A stretch of DNA of 62,435 bases, filler included, from Sphingomonadaceae bacterium (GTDB lineage Bacteria > Chloroflexota > UBA6077), in assembly GCA_050261575.1 (NCBI GenBank). It is 7 parts of 7 records of this genome, joined end to end, with 100 filler letters (N's around TTAATTAATTAA, not from the genome) between each part and the next. Parts side by side here need not be neighbours in the genome. Positions count along the whole stretch, not along the records: positions 1 to 22,057 come from JBLNDL010000001.1; 6 more parts are not named here. One strand, 5' to 3'. A model generated the notes under the pieces. The model did not search any database. It was not told the origin of the DNA and saw only the letters and a list, made by a program, of their open reading frames with translations. Below are positions 1-22,157 of this stretch, piece by piece; within the stretch, counting starts at the first letter, position 1, and each line of letters opens with the position of its first letter. The translations under genes and the position numbers were made by a program.

Positions 1-741
1 CGGACCATAGGGCGGCCAGGTGGTCGTTGCCTCGTTGGAGGGGATCGCCAGCACGTAGGCCTGCCTTCGGTCCTCCAGAGCCCTGCGGAGCTTCCCATCG
101 CTGCCGTAGACCTCGTCCCCGACGACCCAGGCTGCCATCACTCCAGCATCCAGGGCTCGCTGGACCATCTGGAGAGCCAGCTCGGGCTTGGTACGGTACT
201 CGGTTTCGTTTGGGATCCCTGCCGCCTTGCACCTGTCCGGGGCATCCGCCCACCCCTTGGGCAGGTAGAGGGCGCGATCGATCCCAGCGTGCCCTTTGGA
301 GCTGGCATAGCTGAGAAAGACGCCGACTTGGCAGTTGGCGATCTTGCCGAGGGTCCCACAGTACTGGCGTGCCACCCCAACCGAGTGGTTGCCCTGCTTG
401 GGAAAGCCGCTCTCATCGATGACCAGAACCCCCTCCGGGCCGCCCAACTCGCCGACAACCCACCCTCGCAACTCGTCACGGACAGCATCGGCGTCCCAGG
501 CGTAGCGGTCGAGGGTGCGCTGGATTCCGCGAGGATGGGAGTACCCAAGGTACTCGGCCAACTGCCAGCCGTTCTTGCGCTCGATGTCGGCGAGCAGCCC
601 GCGCAGGTAGTCGGCGGCGTGGCGAGCTGCCTCCCGAGGGCGAACGTGCCGGCCGAGCCGCCTCAGCGCTTCGTCCACTGTAAGCGCGGCTTCCTCGGCC
701 ACCTTGACATCACTCTCACAATTGCATCTCGGGGTTATCAT
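1..741 (-). CDS. IS701-family DDE transposase, runs off the left edge of the window
   Basis: Manual minus-strand translation from ATG 741 (SD AGGAGG) is open to position 1 and contains RKNGWQLAE, LVIDESGFPKQGNHSVGVARQYCGTLGKIANCQVGVFL and WVVGDEVYG. It is absent from the ORF track because it has no stop in the window. Confidence 0.9.
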   Translation of the reverse strand, partial: MITPRCNCESDVKVAEEAALTVDEALRRLGRHVRPREAARHAADYLRGLLADIERKNGWQLAEYLGYSHPRGIQRTLDRYAWDADAVRDELRGWVVGELGGPEGVLVIDESGFPKQGNHSVGVARQYCGTLGKIANCQVGVFLSYASSKGHAGIDRALYLPKGWADAPDRCKAAGIPNETEYRTKPELALQMVQRALDAGVMAAWVVGDEVYGSDGKLRRALEDRRQAYVLAIPSNEATTTWPPYGP

Positions 742-805
742 GGCAGTGAGCCTCCTGACTACCCTGAGTAGCAAGATCCGTGTCAAAAGGGAACTGTAAT
801 ACTAG
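1..805 (-). mobile_element. IS701-family insertion sequence, one end visible
   Basis: Transposase plus terminus ...ACTGTAATACTAG ending in CTAG (802-805). Confidence 0.75.
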
Positions 806-887
806 CTCCGCGATGACCAGCCGCTACTTGGGGAACGCCAGAAAGGTCCAGGCAGCCAAAGAGATGCCCCGCTTCTCCCCGTTTTAG
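804..887 (+). pseudogene. C-terminal remnant of a tyrosine recombinase interrupted by the IS701
   Basis: Reads SSAMTSRYLGNARKVQAAKEMPRFSPF*, resembling the MTxxY catalytic-Tyr tail of XerC/D-like integrases. It begins exactly at the IS CTAG. Confidence 0.6.
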
Positions 888-998
888 TCCCCTGCTTCAA
901 GAATCCGAAGTCCCCTGCTTAGGCTAAGTCGAGGGCGCCGGTGGAGTGATAATGGGGATAATCAGAATGGGGTGACAGTAGAAGAGGGCACAAAAAAG

Positions 999-1103
999 TG
1001 GCGGGGGTCAGATTTGAACTGACGACCAAGGGCTTGTGAGTATCGTGTACGTCTTGCTTCGCAATACGCACACTCCCCTGCTCTGCCGCTGAGCTACCCC
1101 GAA
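999..1103 (-). pseudogene. tRNA-Met-like copy at the att site: 33-nt insertion, CAC anticodon, first two acceptor pairs broken
   Basis: Aligns with both halves of the tRNA at 6262-6333. Insertion at 1041-1073. Confidence 0.85.
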
Positions 1104-1196
1104 CCCCAATATGTTGTGCTTGTGGGCATTCACATACACAACATACTGGTATGACAGCAAAGGGCAGGCTGCGCTGGAGTGACGGCAGGAAGGCTG

Positions 1197-1216
1197 TACA
1201 GCATCAATACAGCATC
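1197..1216 (+). repeat. Putative integrase arm-type sites, 2 x TACAGCATC
   Basis: Copies at 1197 and 1208 (11-bp period). The same 9-mer occurs three times at 6150-6180. Confidence 0.8.
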
Positions 1217-1239
1217 GACCAGGGCTGTGGGAGGAAGAG

Positions 1240-2364
1240 ATGTCCCGACGCAGCCCAGGCGAAGGTTCCATCACCCAGCGAAACAACGGTCTCTGGCAGG
1301 GCGCCCTACAGATCAACGGCAGGAGAAAGACGGTCTACGGCAAGACCAGGAGCGAAGTAGCTGAGAAGCTACGCTCGCTCACTGCTCAGGTTGCCACCTC
1401 CGGCAGGCTTCCAGACTCAGGGAAGCTCACTCTCTCCAGCTACTTCAGCGAATGGCTGAGCCAAGCCGAGGCCAGGCTACGGCCTGGCACCGTGTACAGT
1501 TATCGCGCCCTGGTGCGCTGCCACGTTCTACCGCAGCTTGGCAGCGTGAAGCTCTCCCGCCTCCAGGCTCTACACCTCACTAGGCTCTATGCTGATCTGC
1601 GACAGAAGGGGCTGAGCCCCCGCAGGGTGCAGATGGTGCACCGGCTGCTGCATAAAGCCCTTGGTGACGCCGCAAGGTGGGGGCTGCTTGCTACCAACGT
1701 GGCCGGTCTGGTGGACGGCCCCACGTGTCCCACTGAAGAGCCCGAGTTGTGGTGCCCCGAGAAGGTATCTGGCTTCGTGTCGGCACTGGAAGAGGGGAGC
1801 GGCGGGCAGTATGGTATGCTGTTCGGCTTCCTGCTGGCTTCTGGCTGCCGCGAGGGGGAAGCCTTGGGGCTACGGTGGAGCGATGTGGATTGGGAAAAGT
1901 CCGCTGTGCGAGTGGAGCGGCAGGTAACATGGGTGGACAACCAACCGGTGGAACTGCTGCCGAAGACCAGGAGCGGTGTCCGCGCTGTTTCCATCCCTTC
2001 GTGGGGCATTGGGCTGCTGCGCAAGCAGAAAGCCCAAGTGGCAGAATGGAGGTTGCGGGCTGGGGAAGGCTGGCAGGGTGGGGAGCGCGTGTTCACCACA
2101 GCCAACTGTCGTGTGCCCAGCCCCTCAAACTTGCGCAGGGCTTTCCTGGGGCTCTGCCAACGGCTGGAATTGCCAGCGGTCAGGCTGCACGATCTGCGGC
2201 ACCTTCACCTCTCCCTGCTCGCCATGAACGGAGTGCCCGTGAAAGTCGCTCAGGCGAGGGCGGGGCATTCCAGCCCCATACTTACGCTGCGAGTCTATCA
2301 GCACGTTCTCGGTGAGCCCGATAGGGAAGCGGCAGCCGCCATAGAGCGGCTGGCACTGCGGTAG
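1240..2364 (+). CDS. Tyrosine integrase (phage/ICE type)
   Basis: N-terminal RRxxGEGSI arm-binding motif. Catalytic residues in GCREGEALGLRW, PKT, HDLRH, AGHS and VYQH. Confidence 0.97.
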   Translation: MSRRSPGEGSITQRNNGLWQGALQINGRRKTVYGKTRSEVAEKLRSLTAQVATSGRLPDSGKLTLSSYFSEWLSQAEARLRPGTVYSYRALVRCHVLPQLGSVKLSRLQALHLTRLYADLRQKGLSPRRVQMVHRLLHKALGDAARWGLLATNVAGLVDGPTCPTEEPELWCPEKVSGFVSALEEGSGGQYGMLFGFLLASGCREGEALGLRWSDVDWEKSAVRVERQVTWVDNQPVELLPKTRSGVRAVSIPSWGIGLLRKQKAQVAEWRLRAGEGWQGGERVFTTANCRVPSPSNLRRAFLGLCQRLELPAVRLHDLRHLHLSLLAMNGVPVKVAQARAGHSSPILTLRVYQHVLGEPDREAAAAIERLALR

Positions 2365-2686
2365 AAAATAACTTACACTTTCGCAGAGAGGAGAAGAAAG
2401 GGCAATGACAGTCACAGCGGCCAACGAGTGCTTCATTGAGGCGACATTCAACAATGGCGTGGTTTTGATCTGCGACAACCGGGGCTTCAACTCTTCTGGC
2501 AGGACGCCGTAGGCGACCTCGCACCTTTGCATCTCGGCTTGATGTGGGCTGATCTGGCGGAGATGCAGCAGCTTGTTGCCCCCCCGTCTGCGGGCTCTCG
2601 GCTAGCATCGTAGGGTAACAGCCTGTTGATACCCTGCCCTGTGCGGGTGACAGAAGCTCGCACGGGCAGGGTACCGGCTGTGCGGT

Positions 2687-3505
2687 TTACTCTTCGCTGT
2701 ATGGTCCGCCAATGAAGCACGAGTCTTCTACAATGCCATCCAGAACGTCCAGCAGGAACGTTAGACCGGCAGCCTTGGCTTCCGCTACTCGCCGCTCTCG
2801 CTCAACTCGCTCCCTCTCTTCGGCCTGTTTCACACATTCCGGCTCCATGTCCTTCCGGCATTCTGGGCACAGTGAAGCGAACCAGGGCATGTGCCAGATA
2901 TTCCCCTTCTTGTCCATCATCTCCTTCCCGCGCCTAAAGATTCTCCGCGTTTTGCACTTGGTGCATAGCGAGCCTTCGCACAGGCACAGTACGCGGGTGA
3001 TGCTCTTTGACTCGGGGTAGTAGACTTCCCCCCTGAACTCTCCGCACATCTCGCAGACCTTCACCTTAGCGATAGCGCGATGCTCGCCATGCTGAGCCAC
3101 CCTGATCTCCACCTTTCCAGCGTCCACCTCGGTACCCTCCTGCTGGTTGCTGTTGCGGCGCAGCGTCAGTGACGGAAAGCTTAGCCTACGGCTATCAACT
3201 CGGGCTGAGAGTCTGTAAGGTCTTCTGAATACCGCCTCTTTTGGTAGGGCGGCCTGATCGCCGCTGTTGTACACATGTACGGGGTGCCTAAATCGTGTCT
3301 TGCTCCCCGCTTGTGCGAGAGCCCGCGCCCACGGCGCATGGGCCTGGATGTATGCCTTCTCCACATTGTCGGTATCGCCCGCCCAACCTCGGATCAACAG
3401 CTTCCTCCGGTAGAGCGCGAGCAAGTACGGGTCTGTTGCATACCGTTCGGCAAGCGCCTGACAAGGCGGGCAATTGCAGAACGGTTCGCTGGGGGAGGAT
3501 GCCAC
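2687..3505 (-). CDS. Hypothetical Cys-rich (multi-CxxC, probable Zn-binding) protein
   Basis: 272-aa ORF, SD AAAGGAG before GTG. Motifs CNCPPC, CEMC, CLC, CTKC, CPEC. A possible internal start near 3127 also has an SD. Confidence 0.6.
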   Translation of the reverse strand: MASSPSEPFCNCPPCQALAERYATDPYLLALYRRKLLIRGWAGDTDNVEKAYIQAHAPWARALAQAGSKTRFRHPVHVYNSGDQAALPKEAVFRRPYRLSARVDSRRLSFPSLTLRRNSNQQEGTEVDAGKVEIRVAQHGEHRAIAKVKVCEMCGEFRGEVYYPESKSITRVLCLCEGSLCTKCKTRRIFRRGKEMMDKKGNIWHMPWFASLCPECRKDMEPECVKQAEERERVERERRVAEAKAAGLTFLLDVLDGIVEDSCFIGGPYSEE

Positions 3506-3544
3506 GCTTCGACTCCTTTCTGAGCCATCAAGCGCGGCACAGCA

Positions 3545-3570
3545 GAAAACCTCCGCGCAAGTCGGAGGTT
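3545..3570 (-). terminator. Intrinsic terminator, expression platform of the riboswitch
   Basis: AACCTCCG-ACTTGCG-CGGAGGTT followed by TTCT, directly after the aptamer. Confidence 0.7.
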
Positions 3571-3670
3571 GCGCGACCTTGGTTCCCTTTCGGGCCTATC
3601 TCCCTTTCGGGACAGACACCTTGCCGTCGCAGGCAGGTTGTCGGGCGCCAGGAGCGCCGCTCTTGATAGC
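3571..3670 (-). ncRNA. SAM-I/IV riboswitch aptamer
   Basis: P1 CUAUC/GAUAG; J1/2 AAGAG; short P2 GGCGC/GCGCC; P3 GACAACCUGCC...GGCAAGGUGUC; P4 UCCC-GAAA-GGGA; P5 CCC-GAAA-GGG; PK2 between L3 UGCGAC and the 3' tail GUCGCG. Confidence 0.88.
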
Positions 3671-3741
3671 TGGTATCAGTTTGTAGGGGAAGAATACCGG
3701 CTTCCTAGTTGTGCGTCAAGCCGCCGAAAGGCGGGCCTTTG

Positions 3742-3918
3742 TTATTCGCTTTGGTCGGGGTGTCTCGCGCCCCAGATGCCGAGGGCGATGAAGGCACCGA
3801 TCACCCCAAGGCTGATCCAGTTGGGCTTGCCCTGGAAGACCTCCATGACGGTCCAAATCAGCCAAACGATGACGATGCGGCTCACCCATGGCCTTACGAT
3901 ATACCACAGAACTCTCAT
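3742..3918 (-). CDS. Small two-TM membrane protein (58 aa)
   Basis: MRVLWYIVRPW... with two hydrophobic stretches. ATGA overlap with the upstream ORF. Confidence 0.6.
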   Translation of the reverse strand: MRVLWYIVRPWVSRIVIVWLIWTVMEVFQGKPNWISLGVIGAFIALGIWGARHPDQSE

Positions 3919-4151
3919 TGCGACCTCCGGTTCTTGAGCCACCACTTCAGGTACTCGTCCTGCACTTCCGACTCCGGCTCTTTCTTGTGCAGGCACGCGG
4001 CAAGGAGCAGCCAGGCCGCAGGGACCAGTATCCAGGGTTGAGTAAGAAGCTCTCCGAAGCGGCCCCAGTCTCCTCCCAGGAAGTAGACGAAGGCCAGACC
4101 GACGAGCCACCCGATACACAGCCGAGTAATGACTTGGCCCAAGTCGTTCAT
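3915..4151 (-). CDS. Small two-TM membrane protein (78 aa)
   Basis: Strong SD AAAGGAGGT before ATG 4151. Two hydrophobic segments and a charged tail. Confidence 0.7.
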   Translation of the reverse strand: MNDLGQVITRLCIGWLVGLAFVYFLGGDWGRFGELLTQPWILVPAAWLLLAACLHKKEPESEVQDEYLKWWLKNRRSQ

Positions 4152-4514
4152 GAACTTACCTCCTTTCGACCTAATTATGTCTCCCTCTGTCAAGCGGTCG
4201 TGGCGCGTATGAGCCAGAAGATGCGCAGGCCACCAGGAACCGCTGCACGACAACCATACTTGGGTAGATCTGTTCCTCAACTGGCAGTGGTGCGCACCAT
4301 GCACCCTTCTCCCTCCTGTCTCAGAAGGCGCCTGCTGTGTCTTCGTCGAGCAGCAAAGCGGCGTGAGAAGCTCTTAGCCACGGGCTCTACTGGGTATTCC
4401 GTACCCTTTTCCATCCGTTTTCCAACAGAAATGGGGAGGATTTGAGACCTGGCTTCCCCTCGGCTGCTGGAACCGGTAAACTAAGATGCTGATGAACCTG
4501 GTGGAGGTGATGCG

Positions 4515-5081
4515 ATGCCACGATACCTGGCGATGCTGGCGCTGGCAGCGGCCACGTTCGCGGTGGGCATTGTGGTGGGGCAGGGCGGCCTGCCCGCCAA
4601 AGCCCAAGCTCCCTCTGTGGAGGAAAAGGCGGCGGCGATCAAGGCTCATCTGTTGGAGAAGATCACGGCGGTAAACGCGGAGGTGCCGCCCGAAAGGTGG
4701 AGACACATCAACGGCACCCACACGACCTATGAGCAGTATAGGGCGGAATACCTCTACAGACTCGCCTATGCTGCCAAGGATGACGCTGTATTGGGCCACT
4801 ACCTCCGGTACATGGCCCCAGCACTGCGGTACTTCTTCATCAGCGAGGACACGCTGCTGGGAGAGCGATTCGTGGATTACTTCGCTCAGCAGATGGCTGC
4901 CACCGGCGTGCCTCCGGTGGTGCCCAACTTCACTGACGAGGATTTCAAGAGGCTGGCGCCATCGGCTATGACGTTTGAGGATTTCAAGAGCTTACTACCG
5001 TGGCCGGGGACGATGTTCTACCCCAAGGTGAGCAACTGGCCGTACAGTGCTGGAGGGGCAGCCGTCTTCGGTGAGTGGTAG
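4515..5081 (+). CDS. Hypothetical exported protein
   Basis: SD GGAGGTGA and signal-peptide-like N-terminus, 188 aa. Confidence 0.75.
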   Translation: MPRYLAMLALAAATFAVGIVVGQGGLPAKAQAPSVEEKAAAIKAHLLEKITAVNAEVPPERWRHINGTHTTYEQYRAEYLYRLAYAAKDDAVLGHYLRYMAPALRYFFISEDTLLGERFVDYFAQQMAATGVPPVVPNFTDEDFKRLAPSAMTFEDFKSLLPWPGTMFYPKVSNWPYSAGGAAVFGEW

Positions 5082-5262
5082 GGCAATCTGTGGGCTTCTT
5101 AACTCCATGAGGGTAGGTACGTTCATGTTCGGCAAAGGCGAGAAAGGGAGGCCAGGGGGAGTGGTGGGCGCAAGCGCGGTCAGCCAGAGCGGAGGGCGCA
5201 AGCGCAGGTGCGGGGCCAGGCAAGCCCTGGCCCCGCTCGCCCCACACACTCCCCCACACGTG

Positions 5263-5436
5263 CTACTTCTCAAGTCTGATGTGAACTATCGAGCCCTCCA
5301 ACCGGCCTTCCGGCATCTCCTTGAGCAGCCTCCGGCCCCGCTCCAGGTACTCCGGCGGCAGCTCCTTCTGGCCCGACCAGATCTCGCGCGCTTCCTTCAG
5401 GAACGCCTCCCAGTCTTGACGCTCGGTATCATCCAT
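5263..5436 (-). CDS. Small hypothetical protein (MDDTERQDW...)
   Basis: SD GAGAGG before ATG. Charged, helical-looking 57 aa. Confidence 0.45.
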   Translation of the reverse strand: MDDTERQDWEAFLKEAREIWSGQKELPPEYLERGRRLLKEMPEGRLEGSIVHIRLEK

Positions 5437-5527
5437 TGCGCAACCTCTCCGGCATGGTCGGCGGGCGCGCCCACCCGCGCTGCCCCGCCCGTGCATGTGT
5501 CTGTGTATATGCCTTCCGTAACAGCGA

Positions 5528-5672
5528 AGCTCCCTGCTGGGAGCTGAGCTGTACATGTATCTATATCAGCCCTATCCCTATAGGGATAGGGCTGTAATGT
5601 ATATACAGTATTACCCAGTACCCTATGGGTACTGGGTATATAGTACCTGTACTGGATATATATACTATATAG
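5528..5672. repeat. AT-rich cluster of palindromes
   Basis: Perfect 28-bp palindrome 5567-5594, 12-bp stem 5612-5638, 7-bp stem 5528-5545, and TGTATATACA 5598-5607. Confidence 0.85.
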
Positions 5673-5937
5673 GGCTCTCCACAGCCCCCGCCTTGGTCGG
5701 GCGGCCTGGGCGGGGCTGATCGTACAGCCCAGCCATTCCCTCTGCCTCAAACCTCCGCAGCCAGAACCGGACGGTTACGGGAGTTGTGTCGAAGATGGCC
5801 GCAATCTCCGGCACAGTCTTTCGCTGGGCAGAGAGCAGGATCATGTGCGCCCGCTGGCTCACCCTGCCCACCTCCCGCCGCATTACTCGTCTCAATTCGC
5901 GCTGTTCCTCAGCTGTCAGCTCCCGCACGTAGATCAT
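5665..5937 (-). CDS. IS630-type helix-turn-helix protein (transposase N-terminal part only)
   Basis: RAHMILLSAQ..VPEIA..TVRFWLRRFEAEGMAGLYDQPRPGRP, with no DDE domain following. Confidence 0.75.
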   Translation of the reverse strand: MIYVRELTAEEQRELRRVMRREVGRVSQRAHMILLSAQRKTVPEIAAIFDTTPVTVRFWLRRFEAEGMAGLYDQPRPGRPTKAGAVESPI

Positions 5938-6149
5938 GGCAAAAGTGTAAGTTATTTTTCAAGCTTGGGGCTTGAAGGTGGTGTGGGCTTCTGATACCAT
6001 CTGGGTAGATCATTACCAAGTCAAGAGCCCTGGCGATGCTGTGACACTCCAGGGGCACGTCTACCAGGCTAGGGGCTGGCGACAGGCTGAGTGTAACACG
6101 GAAAAGCCCACCAGACTACTACCTGGTGGGCTCGTTTGCCTCTGGGCTG

Positions 6150-6180
6150 TACAGCATCCGTACAGCATCACTACAGCATC
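6150..6180 (+). repeat. Putative integrase arm-type sites, 3 x TACAGCATC
   Basis: Copies at 6150, 6161 and 6172. Confidence 0.8.
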
Positions 6181-6261
6181 AGGGAAGCTCGGTAGAGCGC
6201 GCTGGAGAGGCCCGATAGGGCCAACAGCGCTACTGCGAGCCCGAAAAATGCCACAAAATAG

Positions 6262-6333
6262 TGGCGGGGGTCAGATTTGAACTGACGACCAAGGGCTTAT
6301 GAGTCCCCTGCTCTACCGCTGAGCTACCCCGCC
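6262..6333 (-). tRNA. tRNA-CAT, probably elongator Met (CCA not encoded)
   Basis: GGCGGGG/CCCCGCC acceptor stem, CTCATAA loop, TTCAAAT T-loop. Extended -10 TGGTATAAT upstream. Confidence 0.93.
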
Positions 6334-6484
6334 ACGGACGGGACATATTATACCAAGGCTGGGCGGGCCGCGCAAGGAGATGAGCAGCGCGGCCCGCCCA
6401 GCCTCGCCAGAGTCAGTCTGAGGTACGCCTCCGCATCGCTCCCACCGATCTACGGCGGAATGCGAGCGCACCGCTACGCGGGCC

Positions 6485-8365
6485 CTACCTCATGAGGGTC
6501 GCGTTGGGGACGTCGCTCCCCGTGAGATCCTTGTAGGAGAGCTGCAGCAGGGCCACGCTGCGCTTGAAGTTGTGCACAGCGGCGGCCTTGCCGTCGCTGC
6601 CCTCCAGGCCGCGGACGAACAGGTAGTTGTAGATCGCGTTCTTCTGCTTGTCGTTGGCCTTGGCCACGTCGGCCCGGTCGAAGTAGGGGTGACCCTGCAC
6701 TGGCTTCACACCGGAGTCGGCGATCGCCTTCTGCAGCGTGATCAGCAGGCCCTTCACCTCGGCCTGGACGCTCTCGACCTTGCCGTTGCCGTCGTAGTCG
6801 AACCTCGACTGCAGCGCGAAGTCCTTCACTCCAGCGTGGCAGGGCTGGCAAGAGGCGGTGTACTGGAACTTGCCGTCCGGGCTCACGGTGTTGAAGCTGT
6901 GGGACCCGACCTTCAGCTTGTTGGGATCCTTGGCGTCCAGGGTGTCCGGCCACATGTGGCAGACCACGCAGGGGCCGGGCGCCGCGCCGCCGAAGAGAAC
7001 CGGGGTCTCACCGCCCTCGGGGTTGGCCACCGGTATCGTGCCGATGATCATCCCGTGGGGCGAGTTGGGCACCGGCTGGCCGTAGGTCACGCCGCCCGTG
7101 TCGGCCAGCATCTCCCCGGCCGCGCTGTAGTGCGGGAAGGAGCCCTTAACGGCGTCCTCGGCCTTGGTGCGGGCGTTGTGGCACTCGACGCAGGTTGCGG
7201 AGAGGCCGAAGTCCTTGCTCAGCCCCGCTGCCTCGACGGGCTTCCCGACGATACGGAGCTGGAACTTGTTGGCATCGCTGTGGGGATCGTGGCAGACGGA
7301 GCAGCCCACGGTGTGGGCCTCGTTGTTCCAGGCCGCCGCGTTGGTGGGGTTCTGGATGAAGGAAACGTAGCCCGCGCCGGAGTGGCACCGGACGCAATCC
7401 TGCCGGCTGGGCCCCACAGGGTAGGTCCAGGACTGCGACTCGGCGTCGGTGTGCTTGGCGGACTTGATCTCCGTGCCCTTGGTGTGGTGTCCGCCCGCGT
7501 CGTGGCACTGGCCGCACACGCCGTCGTCGAGGCTTGCCGCCATGGGCGCCCCCTTCAGGACGTGGTCCTTGGCGGGCCCGTGGCACGCCTCGCACTGGAT
7601 GTTGGCCATCTGCTGCAGGTCGACCGGCACCTTGTCCCACAGCCCGCCCTTCTGAATCTCCTTCAGGTCCGGGAACTTCCAGCCGGTCTTGGCCTGCAGG
7701 TCGCCGAATCCGCCGTTCTCGGCGCCGGGGTAGTAGCCGGTGACGTGGCAGCGGATGCACCGCTCGCCGTAGTGGCTGATGGAGGGGTTCTCGCCGCCGT
7801 TGATCTCAGCGAAGAAGATGTCGGAGTGGCCGGTCTTGGACCACTCGTGGGTGATGGTGGGATGGCACTTGAAGCAGTTCCCGGCGCCGGCGCCGATGTA
7901 CTCGCCCGCGTGGATCTGCACTGAGGCCATCGGGCTGCTGCCCGCGTCGTTGGCCAGGACGAGGTCCAGCTTGTAGGTGCCGGAGACGTCTGGGGTGAAC
8001 TTGACCACCTCGGCATCCTTGGCACTCAGAGCGGCTTTGGACGCCTTGGGGGTCGATAGGGTCCAGGTGTACTTGGTCACCGCAGCCTTGTTGGTTGCCA
8101 CGGCCCGCAGGGTGACGGGTACGGCGACGGGGACGTTGTTCAACCCGGTGGTCATCCCCTGGACCTTGGTCTCACCGTCGGCCAGGGTCCACTCCAGGAC
8201 GTTGGGATCGGTGGCCTTCGCCGTCACCGCGGCGATCTCGACGGCCGCTACCGGCTTTACCGGCTGGGGTTGCGCCTGCTGGGCCAGCACCGTTCCCGCA
8301 GAAAGGGCAAGACCCAGCAGCGTCAAGCCGGCGATGGCCAGGAGCCCTCTCGGCTTCGCTGCCAT
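6485..8365 (-). CDS. Exported nonaheme cytochrome c, paralog 1
   Basis: 9 CxxCH motifs, signal peptide, Ig/PKD-like N-terminal region. SD GGAGG places the start at 8365. Confidence 0.92.
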   Translation of the reverse strand: MAAKPRGLLAIAGLTLLGLALSAGTVLAQQAQPQPVKPVAAVEIAAVTAKATDPNVLEWTLADGETKVQGMTTGLNNVPVAVPVTLRAVATNKAAVTKYTWTLSTPKASKAALSAKDAEVVKFTPDVSGTYKLDLVLANDAGSSPMASVQIHAGEYIGAGAGNCFKCHPTITHEWSKTGHSDIFFAEINGGENPSISHYGERCIRCHVTGYYPGAENGGFGDLQAKTGWKFPDLKEIQKGGLWDKVPVDLQQMANIQCEACHGPAKDHVLKGAPMAASLDDGVCGQCHDAGGHHTKGTEIKSAKHTDAESQSWTYPVGPSRQDCVRCHSGAGYVSFIQNPTNAAAWNNEAHTVGCSVCHDPHSDANKFQLRIVGKPVEAAGLSKDFGLSATCVECHNARTKAEDAVKGSFPHYSAAGEMLADTGGVTYGQPVPNSPHGMIIGTIPVANPEGGETPVLFGGAAPGPCVVCHMWPDTLDAKDPNKLKVGSHSFNTVSPDGKFQYTASCQPCHAGVKDFALQSRFDYDGNGKVESVQAEVKGLLITLQKAIADSGVKPVQGHPYFDRADVAKANDKQKNAIYNYLFVRGLEGSDGKAAAVHNFKRSVALLQLSYKDLTGSDVPNATLMR

Positions 8366-22057: not shown

Positions 22058-22157
22058 NNNNNNNNNNNNNNNNNNNNNNNNNNNNNNNNNNNNNNNNNNN
22101 NTTAATTAATTAANNNNNNNNNNNNNNNNNNNNNNNNNNNNNNNNNNNNNNNNNNNN
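22058..22157. other. Artificial contig linker (also 36754-36853, 48015-48114, 54424-54523, 58757-58856, 60201-60300)
   Basis: N-runs flanking TTAATTAATTAA, which stops all six frames. Confidence 0.99.

Follow-up and report, generated by a model that had tools for sequence, protein, structure and literature searches.

Organization of the locus

The stretch of DNA analysed here, termed the window, is 62,435 nucleotides long. Its positions 1–22057 belong to contig C1 of a 3.7-Mb, 103-contig genome, and positions 22058–62435 are N or lie off C1 and are not contiguous with the locus. An element of ~5.3 kb extends from about 1000 to about 6300, between two copies of tRNA-Met. The copy at the integrase-distal junction (6261..6333, minus strand) is an intact tRNA-Met(CAT) that is called by ARAGORN, scores 68 bits in Rfam, and keeps its chromosomal promoter, TTGGTATAAT. 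The copy at the integrase-side junction (999..1103, minus strand) is an interrupted tRNA-Met look-alike whose 105 nt are a 72-nt tRNA body and a 33-nt insert. Next to it, at 1240..2364 on the plus strand, lies an intact gene for a tyrosine integrase of 374 aa (PF00589, PF14659; phrog_1 at 3e-58), which is divergent from the look-alike, with 137 nt between its start and the 5′ end of the latter.

Both outer flanks are chromosomal, because they are common to the tRNA-Met loci or fragments of relatives. Relatives G002 and G004 have the promoter TTGGTATAAT, and the sequence that precedes the copy starting at 6333, at their own tRNA-Met loci, and the flank that follows 999, CACTTTTTTGTG, is also the flank 3′ of displaced tRNA-Met 3′ fragments in G003 and G004. 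The copy at 6333..6261 is a working tRNA-Met gene; the window's own genome has three tRNA-CAT genes, this one included, and also a normal tRNA-Val(CAC). A DDE_5 transposase (3.4e-58), cut by the contig start, occupies 1–786 on the minus strand. The original downstream neighbour of tRNA-Met is hidden, because the chromosomal side runs into this insertion sequence.

Short direct repeats lie just inside both ends of the element. Two copies of GATGCTGTA with an 11-nt period are found at 1197..1216 (minus strand) in the integrase-proximal arm, and three with the same period at 6150..6180 (minus strand) in the integrase-distal arm, 81–111 nt past tRNA-Met. The exact 9-mer occurs six times in the 62 kb, and the five that lie just inside the two junctions are all on the minus strand. 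With at most one mismatch there are 24 matches where 6.8 are expected, and none of 100 shuffles has as many. A looser motif, ATGYTGTR, has nine matches in the window, eight of which are at the element ends. Arm-type repeats flank the core of lambda-type att sites on both sides, and the GATGCTGTA and ATGYTGTR repeats are best read as putative arm-type sites of the integrase. Arm-to-core distances were rejected as a guide to the crossover, because they differ between the window, G020, and L063.

Two of the ATGYTGTR matches are the arms of an inverted repeat at 1106..1149, which carry the arm-type variant ATGTTGTG. An earlier reading of the sequence alone (the sequence-only reading) had noted this repeat at 1110–1146, beside the divergent integrase; it is real and slightly wider (fold z −4.47, reached by 0/200 shuffles). 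Similar inverted repeats occur at L006 and L063. The repeat is probably two inverted copies of the arm-type motif, which would serve as Int-binding sites, as an operator of the int promoter, or as both. With a tyrosine integrase adjoining it, a tRNA repeat whose far-end partner is an intact tRNA, and arm repeats at both ends, 999..1103 is the att junction of an integrase element.

No second recombinase was found inside the element. A small helix-turn-helix protein of 90 aa (5665..5937, minus strand) matches the first 56 positions of an IS630-family transposase model at 4.7e-12, and may be a regulator, an excision factor, or a transposase fragment. The element also contains a SAM-I/IV riboswitch at 3569–3674 on the minus strand (60.2 bits, with a gathering score of 41.1), which is unusual for an integrative element of 5 kb. 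A 272-aa open reading frame (2687–3505, minus strand) lies 64 nt downstream of the riboswitch; it matched no Pfam, NCBIfam, or PHROGs family and gave no Atlas lead, and its Atlas model has a pLDDT of 0.40.

Contigs from other sequencing runs cover parts of the locus. In three runs from three other studies (X5, X6, X7), the junction is identical in contigs with a depth of about 2, which looks like the same strain rather than independent conservation. In X2, another sample of the same study, a contig over 1037–5207 has no differences and one gap, and a contig over 5528–6284 has 11 differences and one indel; the integrase-distal arm thus seems to vary, or to have recombined, within the population. 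No excision joints were seen over 600–6700 in the contigs of the four runs, which drop rare forms.

The interrupted tRNA-Met copy

Sequence comparison shows the look-alike to be a copy of the tRNA-Met(CAT) gene at 6333..6261. The 5′ part, tRNA nt 1–30, lies at 1074..1103 (minus strand) and comprises the 5′ strand of the acceptor stem, the D arm, and the 5′ arm of the anticodon stem; compared with 6333..6304, it differs at three bases, and its 28-nt block of likeness is identical at 27/28 positions. Nucleotides 1–2 are TT where the true gene has GG, which places T opposite C at pairs 1:72 and 2:71, and nt 19 in the D loop (window position 1085) is C in place of T. After the insert comes the anticodon loop CTCACAA (1034..1040, minus strand), in which CAT has become CAC through a single changed base at 1036 (C for T). 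The 3′ part with 10 nt of downstream sequence (989..1033, minus strand) corresponds to 6252–6296 with one mismatch, the match being exact over 1033..999 and the likeness continuing to 989. The two copies therefore share a perfect block of 39 nt that begins immediately 3′ of the anticodon and ends one base beyond the gene, and all three internal differences between them lie 5′ of this block. BLAST against the window's own genome returns two blocks only, of 28 nt and 53 nt, each at 96%.

These comparisons bear out the description, in the sequence-only reading, of a full-length tRNA mimic with a 33-nt hairpin, an altered anticodon, and broken acceptor pairs 1–2. How the locus is called depends on the tool. 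Default ARAGORN makes no call at 999..1103, and the Rfam tRNA model RF00005 has no match there even at E ≤ 10, while the true tRNAs in the window score 55.9–69.4 bits; neither tool thus recognises a contiguous cloverleaf. With introns allowed, ARAGORN -i reports a tRNA-Val(cac) at 998–1103 with a 34-nt intron. Its drawing leaves acceptor pairs 1–2 unpaired, so that the seven-pair acceptor stem is absent, and retains five of the seven acceptor pairs, the T arm, and the D arm. The locus is most likely a broken spare copy of tRNA-Met, a tRNA pseudogene at the att junction, and not a working RNA. For annotation, this means that intron-tolerant tRNA finders would report a dead tRNA-Met copy at an island end as tRNA-Val(CAC).

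The palindromic insert

The insert, GTGTGCGTATTGCGAAGCAAGACGTACACGATA, occupies 1041..1073 (minus strand) and consists of a 29-nt imperfect palindrome (1045–1073) followed by GATA. It separates the 7-nt loop from the 5′ strand of the anticodon stem, and its ends may slide by one A. The hairpin has 12 pairs and two bulges, the fold that had been proposed from sequence, with a DNA folding energy of −10.0 kcal/mol (z −3.51) that is equalled by 2 of 200 shuffles. The palindrome can also be read as two 11-nt inverted arms, symmetric at 9/11 positions, around 7 nt. The length of the insert, about three helical turns, is phase-neutral. So strong a palindrome at so specific a spot is odd for random decay.

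The insert is unique at every scale searched. BLAST finds no second copy in the window's own genome, where blastn-short gave only chance 8–12-mers, and a search of 401 genomes of the phylum with at most three mismatches found it in one, namely the window's own, and in 0 of the 400 others. Nor is it present at the same place in the upstream tRNAs that ARAGORN calls in relatives. The sequence-only reading had looked to close integrase homologs for a conserved or covarying hairpin, and none has one; in the closest relative, L063 (59% identity), the tRNA-Met copy is uninterrupted. None of the relatives found is close enough to the integrase element for a comparison of hairpin covariation.

Several origins of the insert were considered and set aside. 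A dispersed repeat, such as a REP or MITE-like hairpin, does not agree with a single copy in the genome and one positive among 401 genomes of the phylum. A remnant of another anticodon-loop element was rejected because, in G003 and G004, the sequences on the left side of the tRNA-Met fragments are unlike the insert, and a footprint with target-site duplication because there is no clean duplication at the flanks. The zone that the insert occupies, the stem/loop boundary, is also where the elements at tRNA-Met in G003 and G004, and a repeat in G014, begin their tRNA identity. This boundary is believed to be the cutting place of anticodon-loop integrases. To judge from their positions, the insert and the anticodon change to CAC may have crippled excision or recombination at the integrase-side junction.

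As RNA, the whole 108 nt folds at −40.9 kcal/mol (z −2.67). The minimum-energy structure is not the hairpin of the sequence-only reading but a longer arm that includes pairing between UGUG in the insert and CACA in the loop. An archaeal-type intron was rejected on two grounds. The tRNA splicing endonuclease PF01974 has no match in the window's own genome, which is 100% complete, and the same search is positive in four archaea as a control; and the minimum-energy fold has no bulge-helix-bulge at the insert ends, the 3′ end being inside a helix and the 5′ end having a 2-nt internal loop. Bacterial tRNA group I introns are about 200 nt or more and have a group I core. At 33 nt, the insert is too short for such a core, and there is no Rfam match, so a group I intron was rejected as well. 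A simple scan of 780–1300 for promoter-like or terminator-like sites found none; the scan is weak, as it detected no sigma-70-like site for int either.

tRNA copies beside related integrases

Relatives of the integrase were gathered from 66 genomes of the class and from metagenome contigs, and were rescored in one script after removal of duplicates. Most are from Chloroflexia MAGs. The best identity is 36% in a genome-contig scan with the single protein and 59% in a metagenome scan with an alignment of four integrases; a scan of viral contigs gave one match at 39%, which has no tRNA. At the eight loci with at least 50% identity to the window's integrase, ARAGORN places a tRNA 98–148 nt upstream of int in every case (divergent from int in six, co-directional in two). 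The 22 loci at 38–50% identity have a divergent upstream tRNA in 11 cases, a co-directional one in three, and none in eight. Below 38%, 56 of 64 loci have no upstream tRNA, the rest being divergent (two) or co-directional (six), and 20 loci of this group have the classical arrangement, a convergent tRNA downstream of int. An upstream tRNA or look-alike that faces away from int is thus the rule in the window's integrase clade. A full tRNA with its 5′ end at the integrase side implies either that the element supplies the 5′ sequence or that the crossover is at the extreme 5′ end.

The three elements that can be seen at both ends (the window, G020, and L093) repeat almost the whole tRNA. In G020 (55% identity), the repeat is 86 nt and comprises a whole tRNA-Arg(CCG) and about 10 nt upstream. 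In L093 (39%), it is 84 nt, 100% identical, and starts at nt 3 of tRNA-Leu, the same boundary as in the window. The integrase-side copy of L093 scores 49.7 bits in Rfam and has a broken pair 2:71, and the far copy scores 58.2 bits. Searches for far tRNA copies at 18 divergent loci (blastn-short) and at 12 loci (exact words of at least 11 nt) found that of L093 only; at the other loci the contigs are too short, or the elements exceed 7 kb. The closest relative, L063, has the same arm motif upstream of int, a similar inverted repeat, and the uninterrupted tRNA-Met, which is of another species. The premise of the sequence-only reading, that island ends repeat only the 3′ part of a tRNA, therefore fails in this clade, given the upstream tRNA rule and the whole-tRNA repeats of G020 and L093.

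In the sister element on G020 contig C88 (L011, 2680–2724; L039, 1583–1610), the tRNA-Arg copy of the inferred attP is flanked on both sides by a 20-nt, palindrome-bearing sequence, GCTTGATATATCAGCGTTTT. A locus with the same tRNA-Arg(CCG) and a similar flank after it (AAAAGCT..GAT.TATCA) is L066 (839–1011); the integrases of L066 and of L011/L039 are 54–55% identical to that of the window. An intact tRNA is co-directional with int in L066, and the copy adjoining int is divergent in G020. The att cassette thus seems, from these arrangements, to have been inverted relative to int between the two.

Origin of the 5′ half and place of exchange

The integrase-proximal tRNA copies differ widely in preservation. 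In Rfam, 12 of 19 score at least 58 bits, four score 32–50, and three are below threshold, so that 7/19 are poor. In the six weak copies that were drawn, pairing is complete in the anticodon, variable, and T arms, and mismatches are found nowhere but in the D arm and acceptor stem. At L070 (47% identity), the tRNA is kept only from model position 9, nt 1–8 being gone, and at L073 (41%) only from the D loop, nt 1–18 being gone. A 7,225-nt contig of G014 (C21; L154 and L155) encodes an integrase that is adjoined by a degenerate tRNA-Trp 5′ half, and arm-type repeats AATGGGCATC lie at each end of the contig. Its first and last 56 nt are identical and start in the tRNA-Trp anticodon loop, and the contig may represent a complete element, assembled as a circle or between repeats. 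Because the mismatches of the weak copies, the truncations in L070 and L073, the degenerate half in G014, and the differences in the window all fall on the 5′ side, the 5′ part is best explained as element-borne, with the exchange at or 3′ of the anticodon stem. As the sequence-only reading had proposed, then, the 5′ half of 1103..999 was very probably supplied by the element side, to judge from the decay pattern in relatives.

The likely explanation is that 999..1103 is the integrase-side att junction of a ~5.3-kb element that targets tRNA-Met, and is a dead copy derived from a whole-tRNA attP. In elements of this clade, attP would contain all or nearly all of the target tRNA, between the arm-type sites, and integration would leave a tRNA-length sequence at both ends. 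The integrase-distal copy (6333..6261) would retain the chromosomal promoter and 5′ part and remain the working gene. The integrase-proximal copy (1103..999) would join the 5′ part of the element to the displaced chromosomal 3′ part, and its function would not be required. With strand exchange presumably at or 3′ of the anticodon stem, the element-borne 5′ part would be free to decay, and the copy would now be dead, with pairs 1–2 unpaired, a CAC anticodon, and a palindrome placed between the stem and loop of the anticodon arm. The locus would then act as DNA, an att junction, and not as RNA. The suggestion that it is a relic is right in spirit, but the relic would be a decayed version of the clade's whole-tRNA attP and not one of an earlier integration. 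The further suggestion that the structure also forms at attP is reasonable in that the same sequence would be present there, unless the insert arose after integration.

The geometry could also be reversed, with exchange at about nt 3, the element bringing a replacement tRNA-Met (6333..6261), and 999..1103 being the original host gene, left without a promoter and altered by the insert and CAC after integration. This is an unlikely reading, and if true it would mean that the host depends on the tRNA-Met of the element. The identity block of a tRNA-targeting element usually starts at the crossover, and here it starts at nt 3 in both the window and L093, which have different target tRNAs, and about 10 nt upstream of the tRNA in G020; the common nt-3 start hints at a mechanistic boundary at the tRNA 5′ end. 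The copies of G020 and L093 are, moreover, 99–100% identical along the whole tRNA. Such identity is unexpected for a 5′ part that is not under selection, so these two elements fit exchange near the tRNA 5′ end, or gene conversion, better. Since 12/19 integrase-proximal copies look like normal tRNAs, the 5′ part may be under selection in many elements. The D-loop base also agrees with displacement, since the integrase-proximal copy has the C of the G002 and G004 orthologues and the working copy has T. Recombination with the 5′-distal part of a tRNA gene is described as known but rare in the accessible part of PMC6563490. Decay of a displaced host gene should nevertheless hit any part of it, and in the six drawn copies it is found only in the acceptor stem and D arm; the window's own three internal differences likewise all lie in the 5′ half, with none in the 3′ 39 nt. 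The 56-nt repeat of G014 starts in the anticodon loop, and the losses of nt 1–8 in L070 and nt 1–18 in L073 indicate that the boundary can lie elsewhere than at the 5′ end.

Two further readings give the insert itself a role, one as RNA and the other as DNA. A functional tRNA-like RNA (a decoy, regulator, or processing substrate) made from the junction and from attP, as had been suggested from sequence, is highly improbable. Its stable fold, the pairing of the insert with the anticodon in the manner of pre-tRNA introns, and the retained T arm, D arm, and five of seven acceptor pairs are set against the broken pairs 1–2, the missing Rfam match, the missing PF01974 endonuclease and bulge-helix-bulge, and a genome that already has a normal tRNA-Val(CAC). 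The identity of the locus in contigs from three studies is what the same strain would give, the hairpin is confined to the window's own genome among the 401 of the phylum and is missing from the upstream tRNAs of relatives, and the weak scan of 780–1300 offers no promoter-like or terminator-like site. The insert thus appears to have no RNA function. As DNA, the hairpin might be a new protein-binding site between the arm sites and the core, or the scar of an abortive Int cleavage, and together with CAC it would lock the element in place; this is rather unlikely, and is compatible with the whole-tRNA attP explanation. The insert lies exactly at the boundary of the 5′ stem arm and the 7-nt loop, in the zone where the G003 and G004 elements and the G014 repeat begin their tRNA identity, and its two 11-nt arms around 7 nt are arranged like a tyrosine-recombinase core site. 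The presumed core holds two of the three internal differences, and the contigs, which drop rare forms and so carry little weight here, contain no excision joint. The element, on the other hand, has no second recombinase and an intact integrase gene, neither the rest of the genome nor the relatives have a similar site, and the palindrome is unrelated to its flanks and so is not a simple hairpin-opening product.

A broader synthesis may be put forward tentatively, though it is on balance unlikely. A Chloroflexota-centred clade would keep a whole target-tRNA look-alike in attP, between the arm sites and divergent from int, and integration would create a second, often intact tRNA gene (12/19 with normal scores). 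The att cassette could flip, as between L066 and G020 at the same tRNA-Arg, and the 33-nt palindrome at the predicted strand-exchange boundary, with CAC in the overlap, would be a recombination scar or lock that fixes the element; under the reversed geometry, the host would live on the element's tRNA-Met.

Relation to known systems

Classical tRNA-targeting elements and prophages (P4-like islands, HP1, pSAM2, and actinomycete elements) have the same tyrosine integrase, tRNA target, terminal tRNA repeats, and working tRNA at one end. The window and its close relatives differ from them in repeating nearly the whole tRNA instead of the 3′ part, and in an integrase gene that lies beside the 5′ end of the second copy and is divergent from it. 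In Streptomyces, the att sequence of SLP1 is said to span the whole tRNA-Tyr gene. The resemblance to SLP1 lies in an att identity as long as the tRNA gene and in full-length tRNA sequence at both junctions; the host phylum differs. To our knowledge, SLP1 has no interrupted tRNA copy.

In elements that recombine with the 5′-distal part of a tRNA gene, the copy rebuilt with 5′ sequence from the element is the working one. Here, by contrast, the working copy keeps its chromosomal promoter and 5′ end, and the copy on the element side is dead. The two share an integrase at the tRNA 5′ end and 5′ sequence supplied by the element, as such elements are cited in the accessible part of PMC6563490. Intron-bearing tRNAs, whether archaeal with a bulge-helix-bulge or bacterial with a group I intron in the anticodon loop, resemble the look-alike in that their anticodon arm is interrupted by sequence able to pair with the anticodon. 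They differ in the place of the insert, which is at 31/32 here and not at 37/38, and the acceptor stem is broken here.

Fragments of tRNA genes left by mobile elements can be miscalled as genes, an example in the accessible part of PMC9897764 being a 90-bp Gln-TTG call on a 44-bp repeat. Like those fragments, as that part presents them, the look-alike lies at the far end of an element, is tRNA-like but non-functional, and may be reported as an odd or intron-bearing tRNA. The cases given there are partial 3′ repeats extended by chance flank, whereas here there is a true 5′ half (27/28) and a discrete palindromic insert. For the AICEs, the accessible part of a review places attB over the tRNA 3′ end (PMC2440964). 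The usual rule, under which restoration by the element is limited to the 3′ part, does not account for the 5′ half that this clade keeps in attP. A literature search for an attP with an entire tRNA gene and an integrase, whose coverage excluded older primary work on att sublocation, found no paper.

As a single locus, the junction is ordinary. The more interesting part, of modest novelty, is the clade-wide retention of the 5′ half of the target tRNA in states from perfect to decayed. The places at which these integrases cut would show why the 5′ half is kept, and whether these elements duplicate or replace tRNA genes of the host. Junction damage like the 33-nt insert is, in addition, a possible route to fixing an element in a chromosome.

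The same tRNA-Met is also the target of another type of element in related genera (L145, L147, and L149, on contigs G003:C142, G004:C70, and G004:C75). Their tRNA 3′ fragments start in the anticodon stem or loop and are preceded by repeats such as GACCAAGGGACT, which resembles the reverse complement of CCCTTGGTC in the tRNA.
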